This document shows positions 4,316 to 62,607 of a DNA stretch of 64,000 nt, in pieces; position 1 is the first letter of the stretch, and each line of letters begins with the position of its first letter. The stretch spans positions 37,262,001-37,326,000 of the forward strand of contig OZ024756.1 in NCBI GenBank assembly GCA_964016885.1, written 5' to 3'. Under the pieces are notes generated by a model. That model did not search any database and had not been told where the DNA came from. It worked only from the letters and a program-made list of their open reading frames with translations. Source of the DNA: Eledone cirrhosa. Lineage: Eukaryota. Position numbers and translations under genes: made by a program.

Positions 4316-4390
4316 ACTGTTATTACAGTTGTTACTAGCAGGTCGGGAGATCAGGTAGTAGCTCCTTCATTGATATCATTGTAGTTGGTG

Positions 4391-4588
4391 GATTGGCAGA
4401 ATCGGTAGAGCGTCGAACACCATTCTTTGCGGCATAGAGTTTATGGCCCTTTACGTTCTGAGTTCAAATCTCGCCGAGGTTAACTTTGCCTTTTATAAAA
4501 TTAAGTACCAGTAATACTCTGGGGTCGATTTAATCGACTTTCCCCTCCCCCAAAAATGGTTGGCCTTGTGCCTAAATCAGAAACCAAT
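4391..4588 (+). mobile_element. tRNA-derived SINE (family S1) with TSD
   Basis: A-box-like TGGCAGAATCGGTAGAGCG, B-box GAGTTCAAATC, family tail TTGGCCTTGTGCCTAAATCAGAAAC. Flanked by ATTGTAGTTGGTG at 4378-4390 and 4589-4601. Confidence 0.85.
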
Positions 4589-4673
4589 ATTGTAGTTGGT
4601 GCTGTTGTGGATCTTACTGTTGTTGTAGTTGTTGTTTAGCCCTAGGCAAGCCTTTATTGAGCAAACATATAAT

Positions 4674-4899
4674 GGTTTCTTATATAGGCACAAGTCCAGC
4701 AATTTTGGGGTAGGGGAAAGTCGATTAAATCAACCCCAGTGCGTGGTGTGACTCGTATTTTATTTTATTGATCCCCGTAAAGATGAAAGCTCAAAGTTAA
4801 CCTCGGCGAGATTTGAATTCAGATCATAAAAGGCTGTAACTCTATGCTGCAAAGCATGGCGTCCGACCCTCTACCGATACTGCCAATCCACCGTCCTTC
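4674..4899 (-). mobile_element. SINE S1, full length, nested in an older repeat
   Basis: Reverse complement of the S1 consensus. 15-bp TSD GAGCAAAC(A/G)TATAAT at 4659-4673 and 4900-4914. Confidence 0.88.
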
Positions 4900-6560: not shown

Positions 6561-6828
6561 ACAAGTGCAGAGAGATCTCCAGATATAAAGCAATGCCTGT
6601 GCCGTGAAGCTTTTATAGTGAGCAAAGGCACTGCACAAAGCCAGTCCCACTCTCTTAACCAAGATGATATTTACCAAAAAGAAGAACAAGTCAACACCAT
6701 TGGATACCATCATACATACATACATACATACATACATAAATGTAAAAGGTAAACAGAAATAACAACACAATCGGTACAGTATATGAAAGGAATATATTAG
6801 GTTAACGCTTAATATAGCAGGCAGAGGG

Positions 6829-6864
6829 TCTTAACGTTTCGGACACTAGTCCTTCATCAGAAGA
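6829..6864 (-). ncRNA. Minimal type I hammerhead ribozyme motif (family G copy 2)
   Basis: Minus strand TCTT-CTGATGA-aGGAC-tagt-GTCC-GAA-ACGT-T-AAGA: 4-bp stem I, 4-bp stem II, palindromic ACGT stem III. Confidence 0.75.
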
Positions 6865-9545: not shown

Positions 9546-10023
9546 AACAGAGAGAGAGAAAGAACGAGGAAGAGATATGTAGAAATAGGCGGTGGTATAA
9601 CTATCTATTACTCGATATATCGATTTTGTCATGATCAATCAACCCTCTGAAACGATCCCAAAACAATTAATTAAGAACCCTTTGTTTTATTTTCGTTGTT
9701 CAAATCCCACCCCATCACATGTATATATATTTTTAACCTGTTAGTTTTTTCGTTGCTCTGGCATTGTGTGTTAGGTTTTGCCTACCACAATGTTCAATTT
9801 GTCAAGCTATTTAAACGTATGTTGTTACTCTAAGGACCTACCTTATTGAGTGCTTTGCTAACTCATTCCTATTGTAGGTCGACTTTGCTTGCCCACAGCC
9901 AAAGCTTCGATTTTACTAAGACTCCACATGTATATATATATATAAAAGAAAATTTCGCTCTACATGGCTGAATACAATAAATGTAATCGGACATGGCTAT
10001 AAAATTGAGGCTTGTTTGCATAA

Positions 10024-10146
10024 CGATCTGAGTTCAAATCCCGCCAAAGTTAACTTTGCCTTTCATCCTTACGGGGTCGATAAAATAAAGTACCAGTAAT
10101 GTACTGAGTATTTGCTGGCCTTGTGCCTAAAGTAGAAACAATTATT
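10024..10146 (+). mobile_element. SINE S1, 5'-truncated
   Basis: GAGTTCAAATCCCGCC...TTTCATCCTTACGGGGTCGATAAAATAAAGTACCAG...GGCCTTGTGCCTAAAGTAGAAAC. Confidence 0.85.
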
Positions 10147-10166
10147 AATATTCGAAAAACTCAGAT

Positions 10167-10199: not shown

Positions 10200-10306
10200 C
10201 ATGAGAAGAAAGAAGGATACTGCGTGGTTGCACATAGGTTACATATGATAAAAATAGTCCTTCGTCAGTGATTTTCCAAGCATCATTGGTATTTCATCGC
10301 ATATAC

Positions 10307-10308
<2 letters not shown>
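10195..10308 (-). mobile_element. TA-inserted element related to family C (54697-54838)
   Basis: Minus strand AAATCACTGACGAAGGACTATTTTTATCATATGTAACCTATGTGCAACCACGCAGTAT aligns by eye with AAATCACTGATGAGGGACTTATTTTATTACATGTTACCATGTGCTACCTGCAGTAT. Confidence 0.6.
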
Positions 10309-10343
<35 letters not shown>

Positions 10344-13891: not shown

Positions 13892-14075
13892 TCCATGCTT
13901 CACTGCATAGAATTACGGCCTCTTGTGTTCTGAGTTCAAATCCCGCCGAGGTTAGCTTTGCCTTTCATCCTTACGGGGATCGATAAAATAAAGCACCAGT
14001 AATGCACTGGGGTTGATTCAAAACTATTTTCCTCCTCCTCAAATTGCTGGCCTTGAGCCCAAATCAGAAACCATT
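13892..14075 (+). mobile_element. SINE S1
   Basis: B box, central TTTCATCCTTACGGGG.TCGATAAAATAAAG domain and family tail. Confidence 0.85.
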
Positions 14076-14289
14076 ATTATCATTATTCGTCTTCGTTTTT
14101 TTTCTTCCTTTTCTTCTGTTGCCCCATTTTTAGATTGGTTTTTGGTATTTTCACAATTTCTGTTGTTCTTCCTCCCTTTTCCTCACAACTCTCTGTCATT
14201 TCAGATTCTGTTGTTCTGGGAGAAGGAGGTGGTGAGGGGAGCATTTTTGTTATGTTTTTGTGTGGTTTTGTAGCTATTTTCATTGGTTT

Positions 14290-17920: not shown

Positions 17921-17925
<5 letters not shown>

Positions 17926-18123
17926 AAAAGTATAACCCCCGACGATAGAGCTCAATGCGTTTCGACGGCTATTTCTGGACTAAATAGTCCAGAAATAGCC
18001 GTTGAAATGGCTTGAGCTCTGCCGTCGGGGTCATACTTTTCCTATTTTCCACTCTACTACCCTAAGTATTGAGTACTCTGGTGCGTTATGGTCCATTTGG
18101 TTCCTTACCACAATTCCTTTGTT

Positions 18124-18154: not shown

Positions 18155-18215
18155 TAGAATAACAGATTAAAGTTTAAGCAAAGAATCGCTGTTTTCACCC
18201 TTAACGGAATCTTCT
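18153..18215 (-). mobile_element. TA-abutting element family F
   Basis: Shares GATTCTTTGCTTA.ACTTTAA with 36938-37025 (+) and 50233-50310 (-). Confidence 0.6.
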
Positions 18216-18544
18216 TAATAATAAATTTGAAGACTAAAATCCAAAGAGGGCTCGATAAGGATAAATATATATCAAATATATAAGAACCTTAGAGCAAATA
18301 TTTATATATATATATACACACACACACATACATCCATATATATATATAAGAAACGAAGCAGGCTGTGTGATTACTGTAAACAAAGTTTAAGAAGGTAATA
18401 TGGACGAAATAAGAGAAGAAACCCTTCATCAGCTGTTAACTGCAGATCATAGAGGTTTCGGTTTTTAAAACAGGATATCGAAATCGATCAGCAGCGCACC
18501 CATGGCCTTTTATCAATCAAAAGGCCCCGAGGGAAGAAAAGATA

Positions 18545-20802: not shown

Positions 20803-21354
20803 GGTACTGTTGTTGTTGGTGGTGCTGTTATTGTTGGTGCTGTTATTGTTGGTGTTGTTGTTGTTGTTGGTGGTGATGCTGTTATTGTTGGTGCTGTTGT
20901 TGTTGTTGTTGTTGTTGTTGTTGGTGGTGGTGGTGATGGTGCTCTTGTTGTTGTTGTTGTTGGTGGTGGTGCTCTTGTTGTTGGTGGTGGTGCTCTTGTT
21001 GTTGGTGGTGGTGGTGGTGCTCTTGTTGTTGTTGTTGTTGGTGGTGGTGCTCTTGTTGTTGGTGGTGGTGCTCTTGTTGTTGGTGGTGGTGGTGGTGCTC
21101 TTGTTGTTGTTGTTGTTGGTGCTCTTGTTCTTGTTGTTGTTGGTGGTGGTGGTGCCCTTGTTGCTGTTGATGGTGGTGGTGGTGGTGGTGGTGGTGCCCT
21201 TGTTGCTGTTGATGATGATGAAGATGATGCTTCTGTTGTTCCGTTTTTGTTGTTTTGTTTTCATTTTTGTTGTTGTGCCAAGGCTACTATTGTACCTGTT
21301 GTTGCTGTTGTTGTTGTAGTTGCTGTTGCTGATGCATCTGTTGGTGTCATTTTG

Positions 21355-21528
21355 GGGGAAGGGGAAAGTCTATTAAATCGACCCCAGTGCATAACTGGTA
21401 CTTTATTTTATCGACTCTGTAAGGATGAAAAGCAAAGCTAACATTGACGGGATTTGAACTCAGAACGTAAAGGTCCCTAATTCTACGCCACAAAACATAT
21501 TGCCCGACGCTCTACCGATACTGCCAAA
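21355..21528 (-). mobile_element. SINE S1
   Basis: Reverse complement of the S1 consensus from head to central domain. Confidence 0.8.
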
Positions 21529-21544
21529 ATAATGGTAATAATAA

Positions 21545-21718
21545 ATGTTTCTAGTTTTGGCACAAGGCCAGCAATTATCCCAGTGTATTACTGGTACTTT
21601 ATTTTATCGAAAGGCAAAGTTAACCTCGGCGGGATTTGAACTCAGATCGTAAAGGGCCGTAACTCTATGCTGCAAAGCATGGCGTCCGACCCTCAACCGA
21701 TACTGCCAATCTACCGCC
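21545..21718 (-). mobile_element. SINE S1, young, with 15-bp TSD
   Basis: TAATGGTAATAATAA at 21530-21544 and 21719-21733 flanks the element. Confidence 0.88.
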
Positions 21719-22140: not shown

Positions 22141-22842
22141 TGTGTGTATGTATGATTCTGCTGGTCCCTCATTAGATTACAGGTACAGTCTGTCTGATGA
22201 GCTGCCAAATAGCCTTCGTCTATCCAGTCATAAGGTTAACCCTTACCCACAAAGTTAACCCCCACCCTATCAAAATCTATTATAATTTTATGTAAGAACC
22301 TTTAAGTTAAATTGCTTTATATATATATATATATTTTTTAATCTAGCATAATTTTATGTAAGAACCTTTAAGTTACAGTATATTCCTAACACTAGCTTAA
22401 TAACGAGAAAGCTGGCTATATTACAAAATTATACCAGATTCTTGATTATTTGCAAAAATTATTTAGAAGTCATTAGCAGTGTCTTTGATGTGGTAACGAA
22501 AATGTTAAAGTGTTTATATCTACCTAAAAACATTCTATCATAATTATATATAAGAATTTTTTTGTTAAATTTTGATCCAACCACCGGATAAATAATCGGA
22601 AAATTAGTCATATTACCAGACCTGTCTGTCAAGTCTCCACGTCCGACGAGGAGATTTCCCTGTTTAAGTTCATTTCTCCTCGTCTCCCCATTATTTTGAG
22701 AATAGCTTTAGCTTTCATTATGAAAAATCTCCCCATTTTGGGGCACTTTTTATTTCATGGTACCCCGTTTAGGTTTTCAGAGGTTGGCAGGTCTGTATTA
22801 CTAAATTACGGCAACTACTTGATTATTTTAAAAAAAAGAAAG

Positions 22843-23539
22843 AAATATGTATGCAGTAGATGTACAGGGAAATTAGACAGTAGAAGTCGCACTGATAGAC
22901 ACATTTTTCAAATGCAAGAGGGCGCTATAGAAGTGGTGGATAGCTTCCGGTACCTAGGAGATCAGATTAGCATGGGAGGAGGGTGTTCCGAGGCCATAGT
23001 ATCTAGAATAAGGACGGGTTGGAAGAAGTTTAGGGAGCTGCTTCCTCTGTTGACGAAGAAGGGTTTCTCCCTGCGTACGAAAGGCCGGTTGTATGATGCC
23101 TGTGTGAGGAGCGCGATGCTGCATGGTAGTGAGACATGGGCAGCAACTGCAGAGGATATGCGACGGCTGGAGAGAAATGAGGCAAGCATGCTCCGTTGGA
23201 TGTGCAGTGTAAATGTGCGTGAACGACCCAGCATAAATGTGTTGAGAGAGAGACTGTGTCTGAGAGGGATAGAATGTAGTGTACGGGAGAGGAGACTGAG
23301 GTGGTATGGACATGTGATGCGCATGGAGGATGACCGATGGGTGAAGAAGTGCCAGGAAATGCCAGTTGAAGGAAGACGTGGTAGAGGTAGACCACGAAAA
23401 ACATGGGCGGAGGTGGTGAGAACAGACCTCAGATCATTGAAGCTCACGGTGGAGATGACGAGGGACCGTGACGAGTGGAGAGATGCTGTGCTGAATAAGA
23501 CCCGTCCCACCCTTGCAAGCAGGGAAAAGCGGACGTAAA

Positions 23540-31601: not shown

Positions 31602-33132
31602 ATATATATATATGTGTGTGTATATATATATGTGTATATATATATATATGTGTGTGTATATATATATGTGTGTGTGTGCGTGTCTCAAGGCTACATCAGT
31701 CGGCATCAGCAGTGATATTGAATATCAGAAACCCACGTGCCTATGGAGGAGCGGGTGGAGGAGATGTTGGGTGGCTGAGAGAGGGGTTAGGATAGGTTTG
31801 GGATGTAGTGTAGGAACGGCTGAAGGGGTTGGTAGTGTGGTGGTGGTAGTGTGGTGGTGGTAGTGTGGTGGTGGTAGTTTGGTGGTGGTAGTGTAGTGGT
31901 GGTAGTACTAAAGTGGTAGTTTGGTGGTGGTAGTACTAAAGTGGTGGTAGAGTGGTGGTGGTAGTTTGGTGGTGGTAGTACTAAAGTGGTGGTAGTGTGG
32001 TGGTGGTAGTTTGGTGGTGGTAATGTGGTGGTGGTAGTACTAAAGTGGTAGTTTATGGTGGTAGTACTAAAGTGGTGGTAGTGTGGTGGTGGTGGTGGTT
32101 TGGTGGTGGTTTGGTGGTGGTTTGGTGATGGTTTAGTGTCAGTGTGGAGGTAGTAGTAGAGATGGTGGTGGTTTGGTAGTGTGGTGGTAGTGGTGATGGT
32201 GGTTTAGGTGGTGGTGTTGTTGTTGTTGTGGTGGTGGTGGTGGTGGTGGTGGTGGTGTTATGGTGGTACTACGCTGGTATTGTGGAAGTGTTGGAGTGTG
32301 CTAGTGGTATGGAGGTAGTGTGCTGGTGTAGTGTTGTTTGTGATGGTGGTGACTTGGTAGTATGGCGGGGGTGGCTTTAGAGATGGGGGTGGTAGTGGTG
32401 GTGGTTTTGGTGGCGGTGATGATGATGGTGATGGTGGTGGTGTTTGGGAGTGGGGGGGTAGAGGTGGTGTGCTGATGAGGGCAAAATGTGTAAAGTAAGA
32501 AAGGGTGAATAAAGGGGTGGGTGTGTGTGATAGAGATGAGACGTGGTGGTGGGGTGGGTGAGGTTGGTGTGTGGGTGGGGGTGGGGTTATGGGGGGGCTT
32601 TGAGGGACCGGGGTGGGGGATAGTTGGGTAGACGCAGTGTAGGGTTGAGTGTATGTGTGCGTCTGTGCGTGTGTGTGTGTGTGCGTCTGTGCGTGTGTGT
32701 ATGTGTGACTGTGTGCCTGTGCATGTGTATGTGTGTCAGTGTGTATGTGTGCGTGTGTGTGTCTGTGTGTGTGTGTCTGTGTGTGTATGTGTGTCTGTGA
32801 GTGTGTGTGTGTATGTCTGTGTCTGTGTGTGTGTGTGGATATCATATGTAACATACACATACATATATTTAGCTGTGTGTGCAGGATCACACACACACAC
32901 ACACACACAAACAAACACGCACGCACAAACACACACACAGACACACTCATACTCAGAGATACATACCTGCACACAAGCACGCAAACAGTGTCATACGCAC
33001 ACATATACATAGCTCTACACACGCACGTACTCTATACAGAAACGTTTCGTGTCCAGAAACCGAAATATTTTGTATGTTTTATTGACCATAGACTCTTGGT
33101 TTTTCCTGTAGTATATATACAACATTATATAT

Positions 33133-33460
33133 TGCAGCATAGAGTTACGGCCCGTTACGATCTGAGTCCAAATCCGGCCGAGGTTAACTTTGCCTTTCAT
33201 CCTTACGGCGGTCGATAAAATAAAGTACCAGCAATATACTGGGGTTCGATTTAAGCAACTTTTCCCTTCCCAAAAAATGATGGCCTTGTGCCTATATATG
33301 AAACCATTATATATTGCAGCATAGAGTTACGACCCTTTACGGCCTGAGTTCAAATCCCGCCGAGGTTAACTTCGCCTTTCATCCTTACAAGGGTCGATAA
33401 AATAAAGTACCAGTGATACACTGGTTAATTGCTGGCCTTGTGCCAATAGTAGAAACAATT
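33133..33460 (+). mobile_element. Two head-to-tail 5'-truncated SINE S1 copies (33133-33308, 33313-33460)
   Basis: Both begin at TGCAGCATAGAGTTACG, preceded by the same CATTATATAT. Confidence 0.85.
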
Positions 33461-33550
33461 ATATATATATAAAGATATATATATATATATATATATATCT
33501 TTATATATATATATATACATATCTATATATATATATATATATATATATAT

Positions 33551-33608
33551 TTAGTCCAGAATTAGCCGTCGACACGGCTTGAGCTCAGCCGTAGGGGTCT
33601 TACTCGTT

Positions 33609-33612
<4 letters not shown>
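33551..33612 (+). mobile_element. Family A single arm (no tail) in (TA)n
   Basis: TTAGTCCAGAATTAGCCGTCGACACGGCTTGAGCTCAGCCGTAGGGGTCTTACTCGTTCCTA. Confidence 0.8.
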
Positions 33613-36928: not shown

Positions 36929-37073
36929 AATAATAATTATGAAAACCAAAATCCGAAGAGTTTCAGAAGATCCTGGAATAGGGAAAAAGCAACGATTCTT
37001 TGCTTAGACTTTAATCTATAACAAATATATACATATATATATATATACATACATATATATATATATATATGTT

Positions 37074-41036: not shown

Positions 41037-41246
41037 CAAAATTAAGATAGATCAAAATAAATTTAATCTAAATCAAATTTAAATCAATATATATACATTA
41101 TATTAACAAATACATTATATACATTTTATTAACAAATGGAAACTATATTTATAAAACCATATTTATTTCATTATACATATTTCAAGGGCCACCAAGGCAT
41201 CCCAACAAATTAAACAAGGCATCCCAACAAATTAAATATAACCTCT

Positions 41247-41301
<55 letters not shown>

Positions 41302-41439
41302 AGCAAAAGGGATATTCAATTTGTTGGTAATTCAACAAATATAAATGATTATAACTGATTTAGAGCACTCAAAAAATTTTCTGGAGTATAATATTCAATG
41401 ATATTAAATAAATGGCAACTATATTTATAAAACCATATT

Positions 41440-41500
41440 TATTCTATTATATATATTTCAAGGGTACCAAAACTTTGGTACGCTTTCATCAGATAAAATA
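41440..41500 (-). ncRNA. Hammerhead ribozyme motif (family D, left arm)
   Basis: Minus strand TATTTTAT-CTGATGA-AAGcGTACCAA-agtt-TTGGTACcCTT-GAA-ATATATAT-A-ATAGAATA. Confidence 0.8.
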
Positions 41501-41644
41501 CAAAGTTTGTTTTATAAATTTTGACATAACCAAGAAAAATACCTTAACGGTTCAAGTTTTTCTTGGATAGTCCAAGAAAAACTTGAAGAAAATATCCAAG
41601 AAAAACTTTTCTTGGTTATGTCAAAATTTATAAAACAAAGTTTG

Positions 41645-41705
41645 TATTTTATCTGATGAAAGCCTACCAAAGTTTTGGTACCCTTGAAATATATATAATA
41701 GAATA
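41645..41705 (+). ncRNA. Hammerhead ribozyme motif (family D, right arm)
   Basis: 8-bp stem I (TATTTTAT/ATAGAATA), CTGATGA 41653-41659, GAAA 41686-41689, palindromic ATATATAT stem III. Confidence 0.8.
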
Positions 41706-41749
41706 AATATGGTTTTATAAATATAGTTGCCATTTATTTAATATCATTG

Positions 41750-41791
<42 letters not shown>

Positions 41792-49691: not shown

Positions 49692-49888
49692 GGATCCTAC
49701 TATCATAATTCTACCATCACAACCAACCCCATCACAACCACCACCACCACCACCATCACCATCATCACAACCACCACTACCATCACAACCACCACCAGCA
49801 CCACAACCACCAGCACCACAACCACTGCTATTACAACCATCAAAACAACAACAACTAGGGATGCAATAAATAAATATAAATATATATA

Positions 49889-50148
49889 TAGAAGCTTTCA
49901 CCGTATTTTTTGACTAAAGAAATTTTAGCCTGATAATGGGGTTTAGAACTCTCAGAGAAATGGAAAAAGATGAGTATTGACGTACATGGGGATCGAACCC
50001 ACATCTTTGGTTATCCAGACTCATCTTTTTCCATTTCTCTGAGGGTTCTAAACCCCAATATCAGGCTAAAATTTCTTTAGTAAAAAAAATACGGTGAAAG
50101 CTTCTATTTTCTAATTTCAAACTTGCTCGCTGTTTCAAAACATACTTA

Positions 50149-50152
<4 letters not shown>
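49889..50152 (+). mobile_element. Fold-back TA-inserted element family B (87-bp arms, tRNA-like loop, 46-bp tail)
   Basis: 49889-49975 is the reverse complement of 50019-50106. The loop on the minus strand reads CCAAAGATGTGGGTTCGATCCCCA (tRNA T-arm/B box). Confidence 0.8.
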
Positions 50153-50235
<83 letters not shown>

Positions 50236-50569
50236 TAAAATAACAGATTAAAGTTTAAAGTTTAAGCAAAGAATCGCTGCTTTCACCCTTAACGGGATCT
50301 TCTGAAACTAACAAAGTCAATCTGTAAACGCAGAACTGGATATTTCAAAGCTAATAGCGATACTCCGGCCAAATCCCAACTCACTCAACAAACATTAGTG
50401 TAATACATAAATACGCTTTAAAGACAATATATCGACCCCCATAGTGTTCAATAACTGGGTAAGTTATTGAGAAAACGAAGGAGGGAGGGAAGGAAAATAG
50501 AAGGGAAAAGGGGAAAGGGAAGAAAAGAGAATATATACATACATACATATGTATATATATATATATAGA

Positions 50570-52672: not shown

Positions 52673-53007
52673 ACACCACACACACCACACACCTACATAT
52701 ACTACACCACACACACACACATATATATATAATACCACACACACACACGGCACACATACATATACTACACCACACACACACACACATATATATATATAAC
52801 ACCACACACACCACACACCTACATATACTACACCACACATACACACATATATATATAATACCACACACACGGCACACATACATATACTACATCACATACA
52901 CACACACACACATATATATAATACCACACACCACACACTACACACATACATATACTACACCACATACACACACACATATATATAATACCACATACACACA
53001 CACCAGC

Positions 53008-53190
53008 TTGGCAGTATCAGTAGAGGGTCGGACGCCATGCTTTCCAGCAGAGTTACGTCCCTTTACGGTCTGAGTTCAAATCCCGCCGAGGTCAACTTTG
53101 CCTTTCATCCTTACGGGGTCGATACAATAAAGTACCAGTAATACACTGGGGTAATTGCTGGCCTTGTGCCAAAAGTAGAAACAATTATTA
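53008..53190 (+). mobile_element. SINE S1, near full length
   Basis: TTGGCAGTATCAGTAGAGGGTCGGACGCC...GAGTTCAAATCCCGCC...GGCCTTGTGCCAAAAGTAGAAAC. Confidence 0.9.
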
Positions 53191-53453
53191 TTAAATGATA
53201 AAGAAATTATTATTATTATTGTCATCACCACCATCACCACCACCACCATCACCATCACCACCACCATCACCATCATCACCATCACCATCACCATCATCAC
53301 CATCATCACCATCACCATCACCATCATCACCATCACCATCACCATCACCATCACCATCATTATCTCCATCATTATGACCAATACCATCATCATCACCGTC
53401 ATATCACAGTTAGAAGTTCCTCCATCATCACCGCCACCGCCGCCTCATCTCAA

Positions 53454-54696: not shown

Positions 54697-54704
<8 letters not shown>

Positions 54705-54831
54705 AGTCCCTCATCAGTGATTTGCCGAAGATCATAGATATTTCATTGCATTAAAAATCAATATCTATGATCTTCGGCAAATCACTGATGAGGGACTTAT
54801 TTTATTACATGTTACCATGTGCTACCTGCAG

Positions 54832-54838
<7 letters not shown>
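54697..54838 (+). mobile_element. Fold-back TA-inserted element family C (46-bp perfect arms, ~33-bp tail)
   Basis: 54697-54742 is the reverse complement of 54760-54805; (TA)n on both sides. Confidence 0.8.
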
Positions 54839-54880
<42 letters not shown>

Positions 54881-54919
54881 GATATTAACAAATGGAAACT
54901 ATATTTATAAAACCATATT

Positions 54920-54984
54920 TATTTCATTATACATATTTCAAGGACATCAAGTTAAATTATGGTGTGCTTTCATCAGATAAAATA
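54920..54984 (-). ncRNA. Hammerhead ribozyme motif, diverged family D copy
   Basis: Minus strand TATTTTAT-CTGATGA-AAGcacaccataatttaacttgatgtcCTT-GAA-ATATGTAT-A-ATGAAATA. Core conserved, stem I kept with the G-U pair shifted. Confidence 0.72.
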
Positions 54985-55134
54985 TAATATAGAGCAGTTT
55001 TATAAATAAATATTGACATACCCTTAAAGAATGCGACCATTTCTGTTGGAAGCTCCAGGATAGTGGGGCTATAACTTTATTTATACTATTATGTAAATTA
55101 GTATTGGATATTTTTAAATAAGCCGTTGGGTACG

Positions 55135-55246: not shown

Positions 55247-55354
55247 TACGGAGGAGATGGACCATAACGCACCAGAGTACTCAATATTTAGGGTAGTAGA
55301 GTGGGTAATAGGAGAAAGTATGATCCCCGACGGCAGGGGTCATACTTTCTCCCA
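55247..55354 (-). mobile_element. Family A copy with short fold-back
   Basis: Tail plus GGAGAAAGTATGA...TCATACTTTCTCC hairpin; (TA)n flanks. Confidence 0.8.
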
Positions 55355-55433
<79 letters not shown>

Positions 55434-55437
<4 letters not shown>

Positions 55438-55651
55438 AACGAGTAGGACCCCGACAGCTGAGCTCAAGCCGTTTCGATGGCTAATTCTGGACTAAAAAAA
55501 AATGATTTTTTTTAGTCCAGAATTAGACGTCGAAACGGCTTGAGCTCAGCCGTCGGGGTCCTACTCGTTCCTATTACCCACTCTACTACCCTAAGTATTG
55601 AGTACTTTGGTGCGTTATGGTCCACCTGGTTCCTTACCACATTTCCTTCGT

Positions 55652-60303: not shown

Positions 60304-60306
<3 letters not shown>

Positions 60307-60421
60307 CGAAGGAAATGTGGTAAGGAACCAGATGGACCATAACGCACCAAAGTACTCAATACTTAGGGTAGTAGAGTGGGTAATAGGAACGAGTAGGACC
60401 CCGGGGTCCTACTCGTTCCTA
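60304..60421 (-). mobile_element. Family A copy with loop-less palindromic turn
   Basis: TAGGAACGAGTAGGACCCC|GGGGTCCTACTCGTTCCTA plus full tail. Confidence 0.85.
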
Positions 60422-60474
60422 TATATATATATATTAGCATTGGAGCACCAATACTAATATATATATACATATAT

Positions 60475-61137: not shown

Positions 61138-61175
61138 CGAGAACAATTGTTTCACCTTAACGGATCCTCAGCTCG
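61138..61175 (-). ncRNA. Minimal hammerhead ribozyme motif in a TA-flanked element (61107-61287)
   Basis: Minus strand CGAG-CTGAGGA-t-CC-gttaa-GG-t-GAA-ACAATTGT-T-CTCG. Confidence 0.7.
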
Positions 61176-61354: not shown

Positions 61355-61357
<3 letters not shown>

Positions 61358-61546
61358 CGAAGGAAATGTGGTAAGGAACCAGGTGGACCATAACGCACCA
61401 AAGTACTCAATACTTAGGGTAGTAGAGTGGGTAATAGGAACAAGTAAGACCGCGACGGCTGAGCTCAAGCCGTTTCGACGGCTAATTCTGGACGGAATTA
61501 GCCGTCGAAACGGCTTGAGCTCAGCCGTCGGGGTCTTACTTGTTCC

Positions 61547-61548
<2 letters not shown>
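61355..61548 (-). mobile_element. Family A copy
   Basis: Full tail plus ~55-bp fold-back ending in TTCCTA; (TA)n flanks. Confidence 0.85.
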
Positions 61549-61591
<43 letters not shown>

Positions 61592-62421
61592 CCGCCGAAG
61601 TCCACTTTTCGTTCCATCCTTCCAGGGTTTGATAAAATAAAATACCAGTCAAATACTGAGGTTGATTTAATAGACTTTTCTCCTTACAAAAATAATAGTC
61701 CTTGTAACAACTATAGAAATTATCCTTATCTTTATTACTGTTAATATTTAAAAAAACTAAAATGCTCGAAATTTTCAGCTCCTTTCGTTATTTTCCGGCG
61801 TTGAGTTCGATATTTCACCGGTGGCTATTGTTGAGTTATAGTTTAGACAAATAAATACATGAATTAACAAGATGAAACATAAGTTCAGCAGCTGAATAGC
61901 TATTAGAAACATTCGTGTAAATAGCTATGTATAGCACTAGGGACTTGAAATAACGCTCGTGTAAATAGCAAATGTTTAGAAGACTGCTATTTATAGTTGA
62001 AATCAACACAGTAGACATATAAATGGCGATAAGGTTCGTGCAAATAGCTTGCCTCAGACTTCTGTTGCTAGTGGTGGTGGTTAATGAGGGGAAAAAACCT
62101 ATCGTGGGTATAGCAAACATCAGAAAGTGTGTGGAAAGTAACACTTGTTGAAGTAATTATTAACAGCTGGTAGGGTTTCAATCCTCACATGTAACCCTTC
62201 CATTTCACTTACATAGATAGATCCCCCTTTTTGTAAGGCACGAACGCCACAATTTCATTAATGTCATGACAACAATAACAATAGTCAATATGGTAAAGAA
62301 AACTATATATTTGGGAGAGGCTTATAGTTAGTTAGACCTATCTAACCCACTACTTCATTGACACATCATTATCGTTCAGGTCAGTTTTACAATGCAGCCG
62401 ACTGAGGTTACCTAATTCCGT

Positions 62422-62602
62422 TGGATTGGAAGTATCGGTAGAGGGTCGGGCGCCATGCTTTGAAGCATAGAGTTACCTCCCTTTGTGATCTAAGTTCAAA
62501 TCCCGCCGAGGTTAACTTTGCCTTTCATCCTTACGGGGTCGATAAAATAAAGTACCAGTAATGCACTGGGACAATTGCTGGCCTGGTGCCAAAAGTAGAA
62601 AC

Positions 62603-62607
<5 letters not shown>
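62422..62607 (+). mobile_element. SINE S1, full length
   Basis: Matches the S1 consensus over its length and ends GTAGAAACAATT(AT)n. Confidence 0.9.

Follow-up and report, generated by a model that had tools for sequence, protein, structure and literature searches.

A fold-back pair of hammerhead-bearing repeats in Eledone cirrhosa, likely a doubly truncated Penelope-like element insertion

The window considered here, by which we mean the whole 64-kb stretch of Eledone cirrhosa DNA analysed, is AT-rich and full of microsatellites, with 18% of its length masked as simple repeat. At 41302-41752 it holds an inverted pair of a hammerhead-bearing repeat, about 450 bases long and situated inside a TA tract, which we refer to as the family D fold-back. 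From left to right its parts are as follows.

41253-41301, no strand: left (TA)n tract, period 2, 24.5 copies, likely half of the insertion target
41302-41392, minus strand: one-sided tail of 91 nt, native family D sequence (family read depth in four of four runs), with two predicted hairpins
41393-41571, minus strand: left arm, native extent about 179 nt (read depth to the 41566-41576 bin), of which 41393-41538 is mirrored in the right arm
41423-41519, minus strand: outer 11-bp helix, which would extend helix I (41519-41509 with 41433-41423; minimum free energy fold, all three copies)
41440-41500, minus strand: left type I hammerhead motif (core 41492-41486, helix II 41485-41460, GAAA 41459-41456)
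41530-41566, no strand: native hairpin close to the left arm's 5' end (DNA fold -9.4 kcal/mol), within the read-supported native stretch
41572-41606, no strand: locus-specific junction scar of 35 nt (sequence parsing; near-zero family depth)
41607-41752, plus strand: right arm of 146 nt, without tail (arm comparison)
41645-41705, plus strand: right type I hammerhead motif (core from 41653; cut predicted after 41697)
41753-41790, no strand: right (TA)19 tract (tandem-repeat period)

Each mirrored part of the arms (41393-41538 and 41607-41752) spans 146 nt, and the two are identical at 144 of these positions. A preliminary description of this DNA, made from the sequence, had reported inverted arms of about 146 bp and (TA)n flanks, both of which we recover (the flanks at 41253-41301 and 41753-41790); it also reported a one-sided tail of about 70 bp, which is indeed confined to one side and measures 91 nt. 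Since the two hammerhead motifs read from the centre outward, the pair is arranged head to head. No target-site duplication is readable at this fold-back inside the (TA)n sequence. The fold of the tail scores z = -1.98, with 9 of 200 shuffles equally good, and the tail variants at 41328, 41330 and 41332, among the variant rows listed, all lie within the distal hairpin's loop. The two differences between the arms (41481/41664 and 41505/41640) are both C-to-G transversions, leaving C-C or G-G mismatches in the hairpin.

Two further copies of family D lie in the window.

54881-55023, minus strand: solo diverged copy with the full hammerhead motif and a short 3' end at a TA tract, without tail and without mirror arm
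41127-41236, minus strand: third copy, truncated within helix II; its 5' junction carries a direct duplication of 22 nt (41193-41214 / 41215-41236)

A descriptor scan of the window places type I hammerhead patterns at 41492 (minus), 41653 (plus) and 54976 (minus), and the full motif, consisting of the CUGANGA and GAAA core with an NUH cut site, is present in three of the four window copies. The pattern arose in none of 5000 shuffles of the arm and only once in total over 50 block-shuffled windows, against three times in the real window, and we therefore do not regard the motif as a product of chance. Helix I comprises 8 bp, helix II 3 bp followed by a C-C mismatch and 6-7 bp, and helix III an 8-nt palindrome, in agreement with the 8-bp stem I and long stem II previously noted. 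The palindrome of the left motif occupies 41456-41449, with a predicted cut after 41448; in the right motif one helix II pair is broken, at 41664. The earlier claim of a complete hammerhead in each arm holds at the level of the motif, but not of the predicted fold or of model searches: helix III has a pairing probability of 0.0 in every monomer folded in silico, its 8-nt self-duplex is predicted at just -3.2 kcal/mol, and an Rfam search of the window returned no match at the gathering score, nor any hammerhead model among the 41 matches at E up to 10, which comprised only generic hairpins below that score.

The copy at 54881-55023 is 78% identical to the fold-back over 144 columns and retains the core and all 8 helix I pairs, two of them through one-sided changes, while helix II is altered, including two two-sided changes that preserve pairing. 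The third copy is identical to the 54-kb copy across 61 nt (41127-41187) and lacks the CTGATGA half. Both results bear out the preliminary description, which had placed a diverged relative with core and stem I kept and stem II changed at 54880-55020, and a truncated relative at 41130-41190. By eye, the 3' strand of helix II in the third copy is similar to the consensus of loose read ends behind 41464. Downstream of this copy, 41037-41126 is AT-rich, unlike the 91-nt tail, and carries local duplications of 15 and 26 nt. Given that the alignment has three rows, two of them near-identical, and that 44 of 500 shuffles reach its score, the covariation is weak on its own; the outer helix is invariant at 11 of 11 pairs and so shows none, and the loose ends of other subfamilies start behind 41519. 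Loose-end consensuses (24 of 514 rows, 30 letters each, compared by eye with the register assumed) provide two more versions of helix II, in which pairs 2, 5 and 6 switch between A-U and G-C type and the C-C mismatch is retained. As regards the expectation that the CTGATGA/GAAA core should be better conserved than its neighbours, the 13 core positions contain no variant among the 40 of 103 variant rows listed (P = 0.09 within the ribozyme and 0.17 within 41401-41530), so that any excess conservation of the core falls short of significance, and the block 41417-41443 is equally clean among the same rows.

Evidence for the native extent of family D comes from four of the 12 public runs listed, from organisms A and B, mapped on 41302-41630 at 80% likeness; the material comprised 8464, 495 and 48 contigs and 27,834 reads. 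Candidate runs numbered 9 holders in 5 studies, with a best word share of 0.42, and runs X6-X9 (small shares) were left out. As the runs share at most 0.42 of sampled words, a "rare variant" in what follows is one measured in other individuals or species. Summed depth, which is not copy number, lies far above the 6-15 of most single X1 pieces listed, indicating that the family is abundant. Depth peaks over 41412-41455, declines 5'-ward and collapses after 41576, and in the tail it peaks at roughly 12% (X1), 8% (X4) and less than 1% (X5) of its maximum over the core. There are two fixed 3' ends: loose ends enter TA sequence at 41391, 41399 and 41407 (the short end) and at 41307 (the long end; X5). 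Ten of the 14 joints listed switch strand, and six of these ten join 5'-side positions. At 41416 both arms carry C, where 1,815,302 of 1,818,951 X1 depth units are A (C at most 0.2%) and the other two window copies also have A; the sharing of this rare C suggests that the arms derive from one template lineage.

The spacer between the mirrored arms had been described as scrambled and composed of re-copied pieces, which applies to 41572-41606 and not to 41539-41571. Read depth continues across the latter stretch (X1 approximately 47,000-70,000; X10 first-mate-plus approximately 160-330) and drops to 265, then 1.6, beyond 41577, identifying it as native family D sequence. Consequently, the left arm is some 33 nt longer than the right, one of the CCAAGAAAAA/TTTTTCTTGG pairs is the native hairpin, and the possibility that the whole spacer is scar is ruled out. 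In the scar proper, 16 nt that copy 41551-41566 in reverse are followed by a short slip and then by 16 nt that copy 41554-41569 in reverse; the final 2 nt of this second piece are shared with the beginning of the right arm. Taken in the plus-strand direction, these pieces correspond to snap-back copying of the left cDNA's end; taken in the minus-strand direction, they correspond to the right cDNA jumping forward and back along RNA. The earlier proposal of a template-jump scar can thus be kept for 35 of the 68 spacer bases, with the qualification that the pieces fit reverse-transcriptase jumps and DNA snap-back repair alike, which sequence cannot separate. None of the read pieces listed from the four runs crosses the locus-specific junction, which is accordingly known from the window sequence alone. 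That no listed contig or read spans it is what an assembly or library fold-back artefact would predict; nonetheless, we consider such an artefact very improbable, given that 2 sites distinguish the arms, the right arm terminates at the short end of the family, a further seven TA-flanked fold-backs belonging to three other families are recorded in the window, and strand-changing joints occur in other runs.

A second group of fold-backs, family A, has the same general form.

277-450, 17922-18122, 55255-55352, 55436-55651, 60306-60422 and 61357-61549: six family A fold-backs, with one tail each and fixed outer ends
33550-33610: solo family A copy

Family A tails measure 71-80 nt in five fold-backs and are internally deleted in one. 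The longer arms contain GAAA, a helix of 4-5 bp whose loop is palindromic, and GTC, resembling the 3' half of a hammerhead; CTGANGA is reached by none of the family A copies. At the centres, the tailless arm extends further 5' in two fold-backs (by 14 and 2 nt) and the tailed arm in one (by 5 nt), two are level and one is unscored. The C-to-G pattern found between the family D arms is absent from family A arms. Taking families A (six) and D (one) together, exactly one tail is present on seven of seven window fold-backs, a tally that excludes two other tailed window fold-backs picked by having a tail. Insertion at TA of a DNA transposon of the foldback or MITE type, bounded by terminal inverted repeats, would account for long inverted arms and TA flanks, yet this explanation is largely refuted and we give it almost no weight: in place of symmetric ends and a fixed interior we find outer ends that differ by 91 nt of family sequence, centres that vary among copies, solo single-arm copies and read depth that declines 5'-ward.

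We conclude that the family D fold-back is likely a doubly truncated insertion of a Penelope-like element (PLE), and that PLE machinery in some form very probably lies behind the fold-backs. The traits that point to this class are an inverted, 5'-truncated module with a one-sided tail, a hammerhead with a palindromic helix III in the terminal module, an AT-rich or microsatellite target, and the two fixed 3' ends, each of them on record for PLEs (PMC3846280, PMC4209133, PMC8557442, PMC11167929). An inverted 5'-truncated copy and a one-sided tail of 30-40 bp are described as usual features of PLEs (PMC8557442), and in the rotifer element Pen2a_Av a pLTR of 218 bp is accompanied by an inverted copy that is 37 bp shorter, by a one-sided tail of 31 bp and by junction palindromes (PMC3846280). 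The endonuclease-positive (EN+) PLE insertions described in these two papers resemble the present locus in the head-to-head inverted module with a one-sided tail, the microsatellite or AT-rich target, the palindrome at the 5' end or junction and a module of about 180 nt, and the shortfall of the shorter arm is similar (about 33 nt here, compared with 37 bp in Pen2a_Av, PMC3846280). They differ in that the family D locus has no ORF between or beside its modules and has a 35-nt doubly templated junction insert, and our tails are longer (91 nt, and 71-80 nt in five family A copies, versus 30-40 bp as given in PMC8557442). Since no reverse transcriptase (RT) or GIY-YIG ORF is linked to the locus, membership of the PLE class is inferred from architecture. 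Such an ORF was found among none of the 202 window ORFs inspected, and a truncated copy is not expected to retain it. The preliminary description had derived the fold-backs from PLE pLTRs; the architecture supports this origin well, but with no PLE ORF linked it stops short of proof. The frame from the ATG within CTGATGA closes after 16 codons and has 3 stops in 62 codons; read through its stops, it gave four database matches, all to unrelated long repeat proteins without a PLE domain, and no Pfam family. Scans for the hammerhead pattern in metagenome and viral contigs, and for a 30-nt conserved pattern in metagenome, viral and prokaryote genome contigs, likewise yielded no match.

Comparison of the ribozyme motif with PLE hammerheads gives a mixed picture. 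Like those described in PMC4209133, the family D motif has a type I layout, a long and variable helix II, and an unstable palindromic helix III for which a dimer is predicted to be necessary; PLE hammerhead motifs are reported there to need a dimer and to cleave poorly. By comparison with those hammerheads, family D differs in its helix I of 8 bp with a possible 11-bp outer helix, in the C-C mismatch that all three window copies have at position 4 of helix II, in lacking the extra unpaired base before helix II, and in an A-U rather than the usual G-C at pair 10.1-11.1, the last of which counts against the PLE reading, as do the lack of an Rfam hammerhead match and the length of the tails. In the anole, the protein of the Poseidon element PAc nicks and extends both target strands, prefers AT-rich DNA and uses uncleaved RNA, with two RNA start sites delimiting the tail and the ORF starting at helix II (PMC11167929). 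[quoted passage not shown] By contrast, the PAc frame from helix II is open and that of family D shuts after its few codons, and the cut site lies at +42 in family D compared with +26 in PAc (PMC11167929); the end-to-end distance in family D is about 91 nt.

In a variant of this origin, a PLE protein would mobilise family D in trans, family D being a non-autonomous, retrozyme-like RNA and not the terminal repeat of a coding PLE; this would be compatible with either of the joining mechanisms discussed below, and we judge it improbable, although less so than the artefact or DNA transposon. Family D shares with non-LTR retrozymes (PMC7229834; bioRxiv 10.64898/2026.07.22.740005) its non-coding, AT-rich sequence, type I hammerhead and high copy number, and retrozymes are themselves argued to come from pLTRs (bioRxiv 10.64898/2026.07.22.740005). 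There is no open frame, helix II differs in length by a non-multiple of three (26 versus 30 nt), the tail has frame-breaking indels, and helix I is of canonical size with a possible extended rod. However, family D copies are dispersed, either solo or inverted, and not the head-to-tail units of retrozymes (PMC7229834); a tandem retrozyme at the locus was rejected for want of head-to-tail hammerhead units. Furthermore, none of the 14 joints listed is a unit-length return (relative to a reference without sequence 5' of 41571), and the copy ends lie far from the ribozyme cut site.

How PLEs build an inverted repeat with a one-sided tail is left open in the PLE papers cited here. For the family D insertion we lean, somewhat better than evenly, towards two separately primed cDNAs, one per target strand, that were subsequently joined. 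In this scenario, a PLE protein with RT and GIY-YIG domains would nick both (TA)n strands; one nick would prime a cDNA at the far end of the tail, approximately +188 from the ATG inside CTGATGA, and the other a cDNA at its near end, approximately +97, on the same or a sibling uncleaved RNA. Both cDNAs would halt early, near the native hairpin, and two short rounds of templated synthesis, with an overlap of 2 nt, would precede the joining of their 3' ends. The principal competitor, which we rate at roughly half that probability, retains the PLE origin but invokes a single RNA-templated cDNA (the tailed arm), the 3' end of which snapped back twice, skipping the native hairpin loop, such that the right arm would be a DNA copy whose end was set by endonuclease cleavage at the tail boundary. 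Self-priming at junction palindromes (PMC3846280) and endonuclease resolution of the tail (PMC8557442) have already been proposed. Snap-back accounts for the rare 41416 allele in both arms and for scar pieces that are reverse copies of the last 20 nt of the left arm, the first forming a predicted DNA hairpin of -16.3 kcal/mol.

The one-tail pattern, together with the varying centres of family A, leads us to favour double priming over such fold-back copying. In the fold-back at 277-450 the tailless arm outreaches the tailed arm by 14 nt in the 5' direction, and each arm has family sequence absent from the other, so that neither is a plain copy of its partner, although a later deletion at the hairpin centre could mimic this. 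Short ends occur without a mirror arm in the solo copies at 54881 and 33550-33610, and two RT start sites together with two-strand extension have been demonstrated in vitro (PMC11167929). Against double priming, the scar starts exactly at the end of the left arm and enters the right arm, which suits one continuous fold-back synthesis, and within-copy arms in family A are mutually closest clearly in only two of four cases, with one tied and one not. Centre deletions can imitate independent arm ends, and seven elements are few. More generally, one-tail fold-backs may be the footprints of obligately asymmetric priming on two strands, in which a PLE protein dimer nicks both (TA)n strands and makes one cDNA per RT start site on a single RNA, a proposal that we advance tentatively and hold at somewhat below even probability. 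If it is true, this genome, with approximately 8 stumps per 64 kb that belong to several families derived from hammerheads and have tails of 36-91 nt, would make the unexplained inverted repeat and tail of PLEs testable on thousands of events. The one-tail pattern and the independent end-points at the centres suggest that a simple census could part double priming from fold-back copying.

The combination of inverted module, one-sided tail and hammerheads on opposite strands is already in print: dual hammerhead motifs 100-700 bp apart on opposite strands were noted in Schistosoma in 2014 (PMC4209133). Our literature search, with subscription papers and supplements mostly outside it, found no paper giving the one-tail, two-start-site reading, and likewise none reporting twin priming with templated insertions; the alignments of PMC4209133 and Fig. 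S2 of PMC11167929 may bear on the novelty of the former. We regard the family D element itself as an ordinary, probably inert transposon stump, the value of which lies in being a datum on the inverted repeat and one-sided tail of PLEs.

With regard to its fate, the preliminary description had suggested that a transcript from either strand would contain a ribozyme that could be masked by the long hairpin, and folding in silico supports masking more strongly than was suggested. The read-through RNA is predicted to fold at -246 kcal/mol (z = -34), its ribozyme helix probabilities are 0.0, and forcing the ribozyme fold would cost 84-89 kcal/mol; transcripts beginning at 41480 or to its left are predicted to lose helix II. 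Whichever strand is transcribed, the antisense arm would be made first and the RNA would fold into the 146-bp hairpin, masking the ribozyme, and the copy is thus probably inert as a ribozyme. The idea that the two motifs serve as each other's dimer partner is excluded by their location on opposite strands. Such long perfect hairpins could, if transcribed, be substrates for editing or for small RNAs.

Several other repeats in the window were recorded. A fold-back at 54700-54838 has a 36-nt tail and arms with CTGATGA but without the following GAAA half, and a solo relative of it lies near 10268 (approximately 10200-10310). Another, at 49888-50150, carries a tail of 43 nt; close to its arm ends there is a palindromic GAAAGCTTC, and its spacer contains a 12-mer that we take to be similar to a tRNA B-box. 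Hammerhead-like cores with a short palindromic helix III occur on the minus strand at 2682, 6860, 2850 and 61171, and the segments 2561-2683 and 6741-6861 are 80% alike. A small TA-flanked family (18156-18218, 36959-37021 and 50245-50309) resembles the hammerhead-like motif at 61171, with the core changed in at least one copy. The 320-codon open frame at 22576-23538, which matches no Pfam family, is presumably the C-terminal part of an RTE-type LINE protein. Finally, a frequent SINE-like family of about 200 nt is represented at 4387-4892, 10023-10151, 13893-14078, 21348-21716, 33112-33468, 53005-53193 and 62419-62605, with at least two close pairs.
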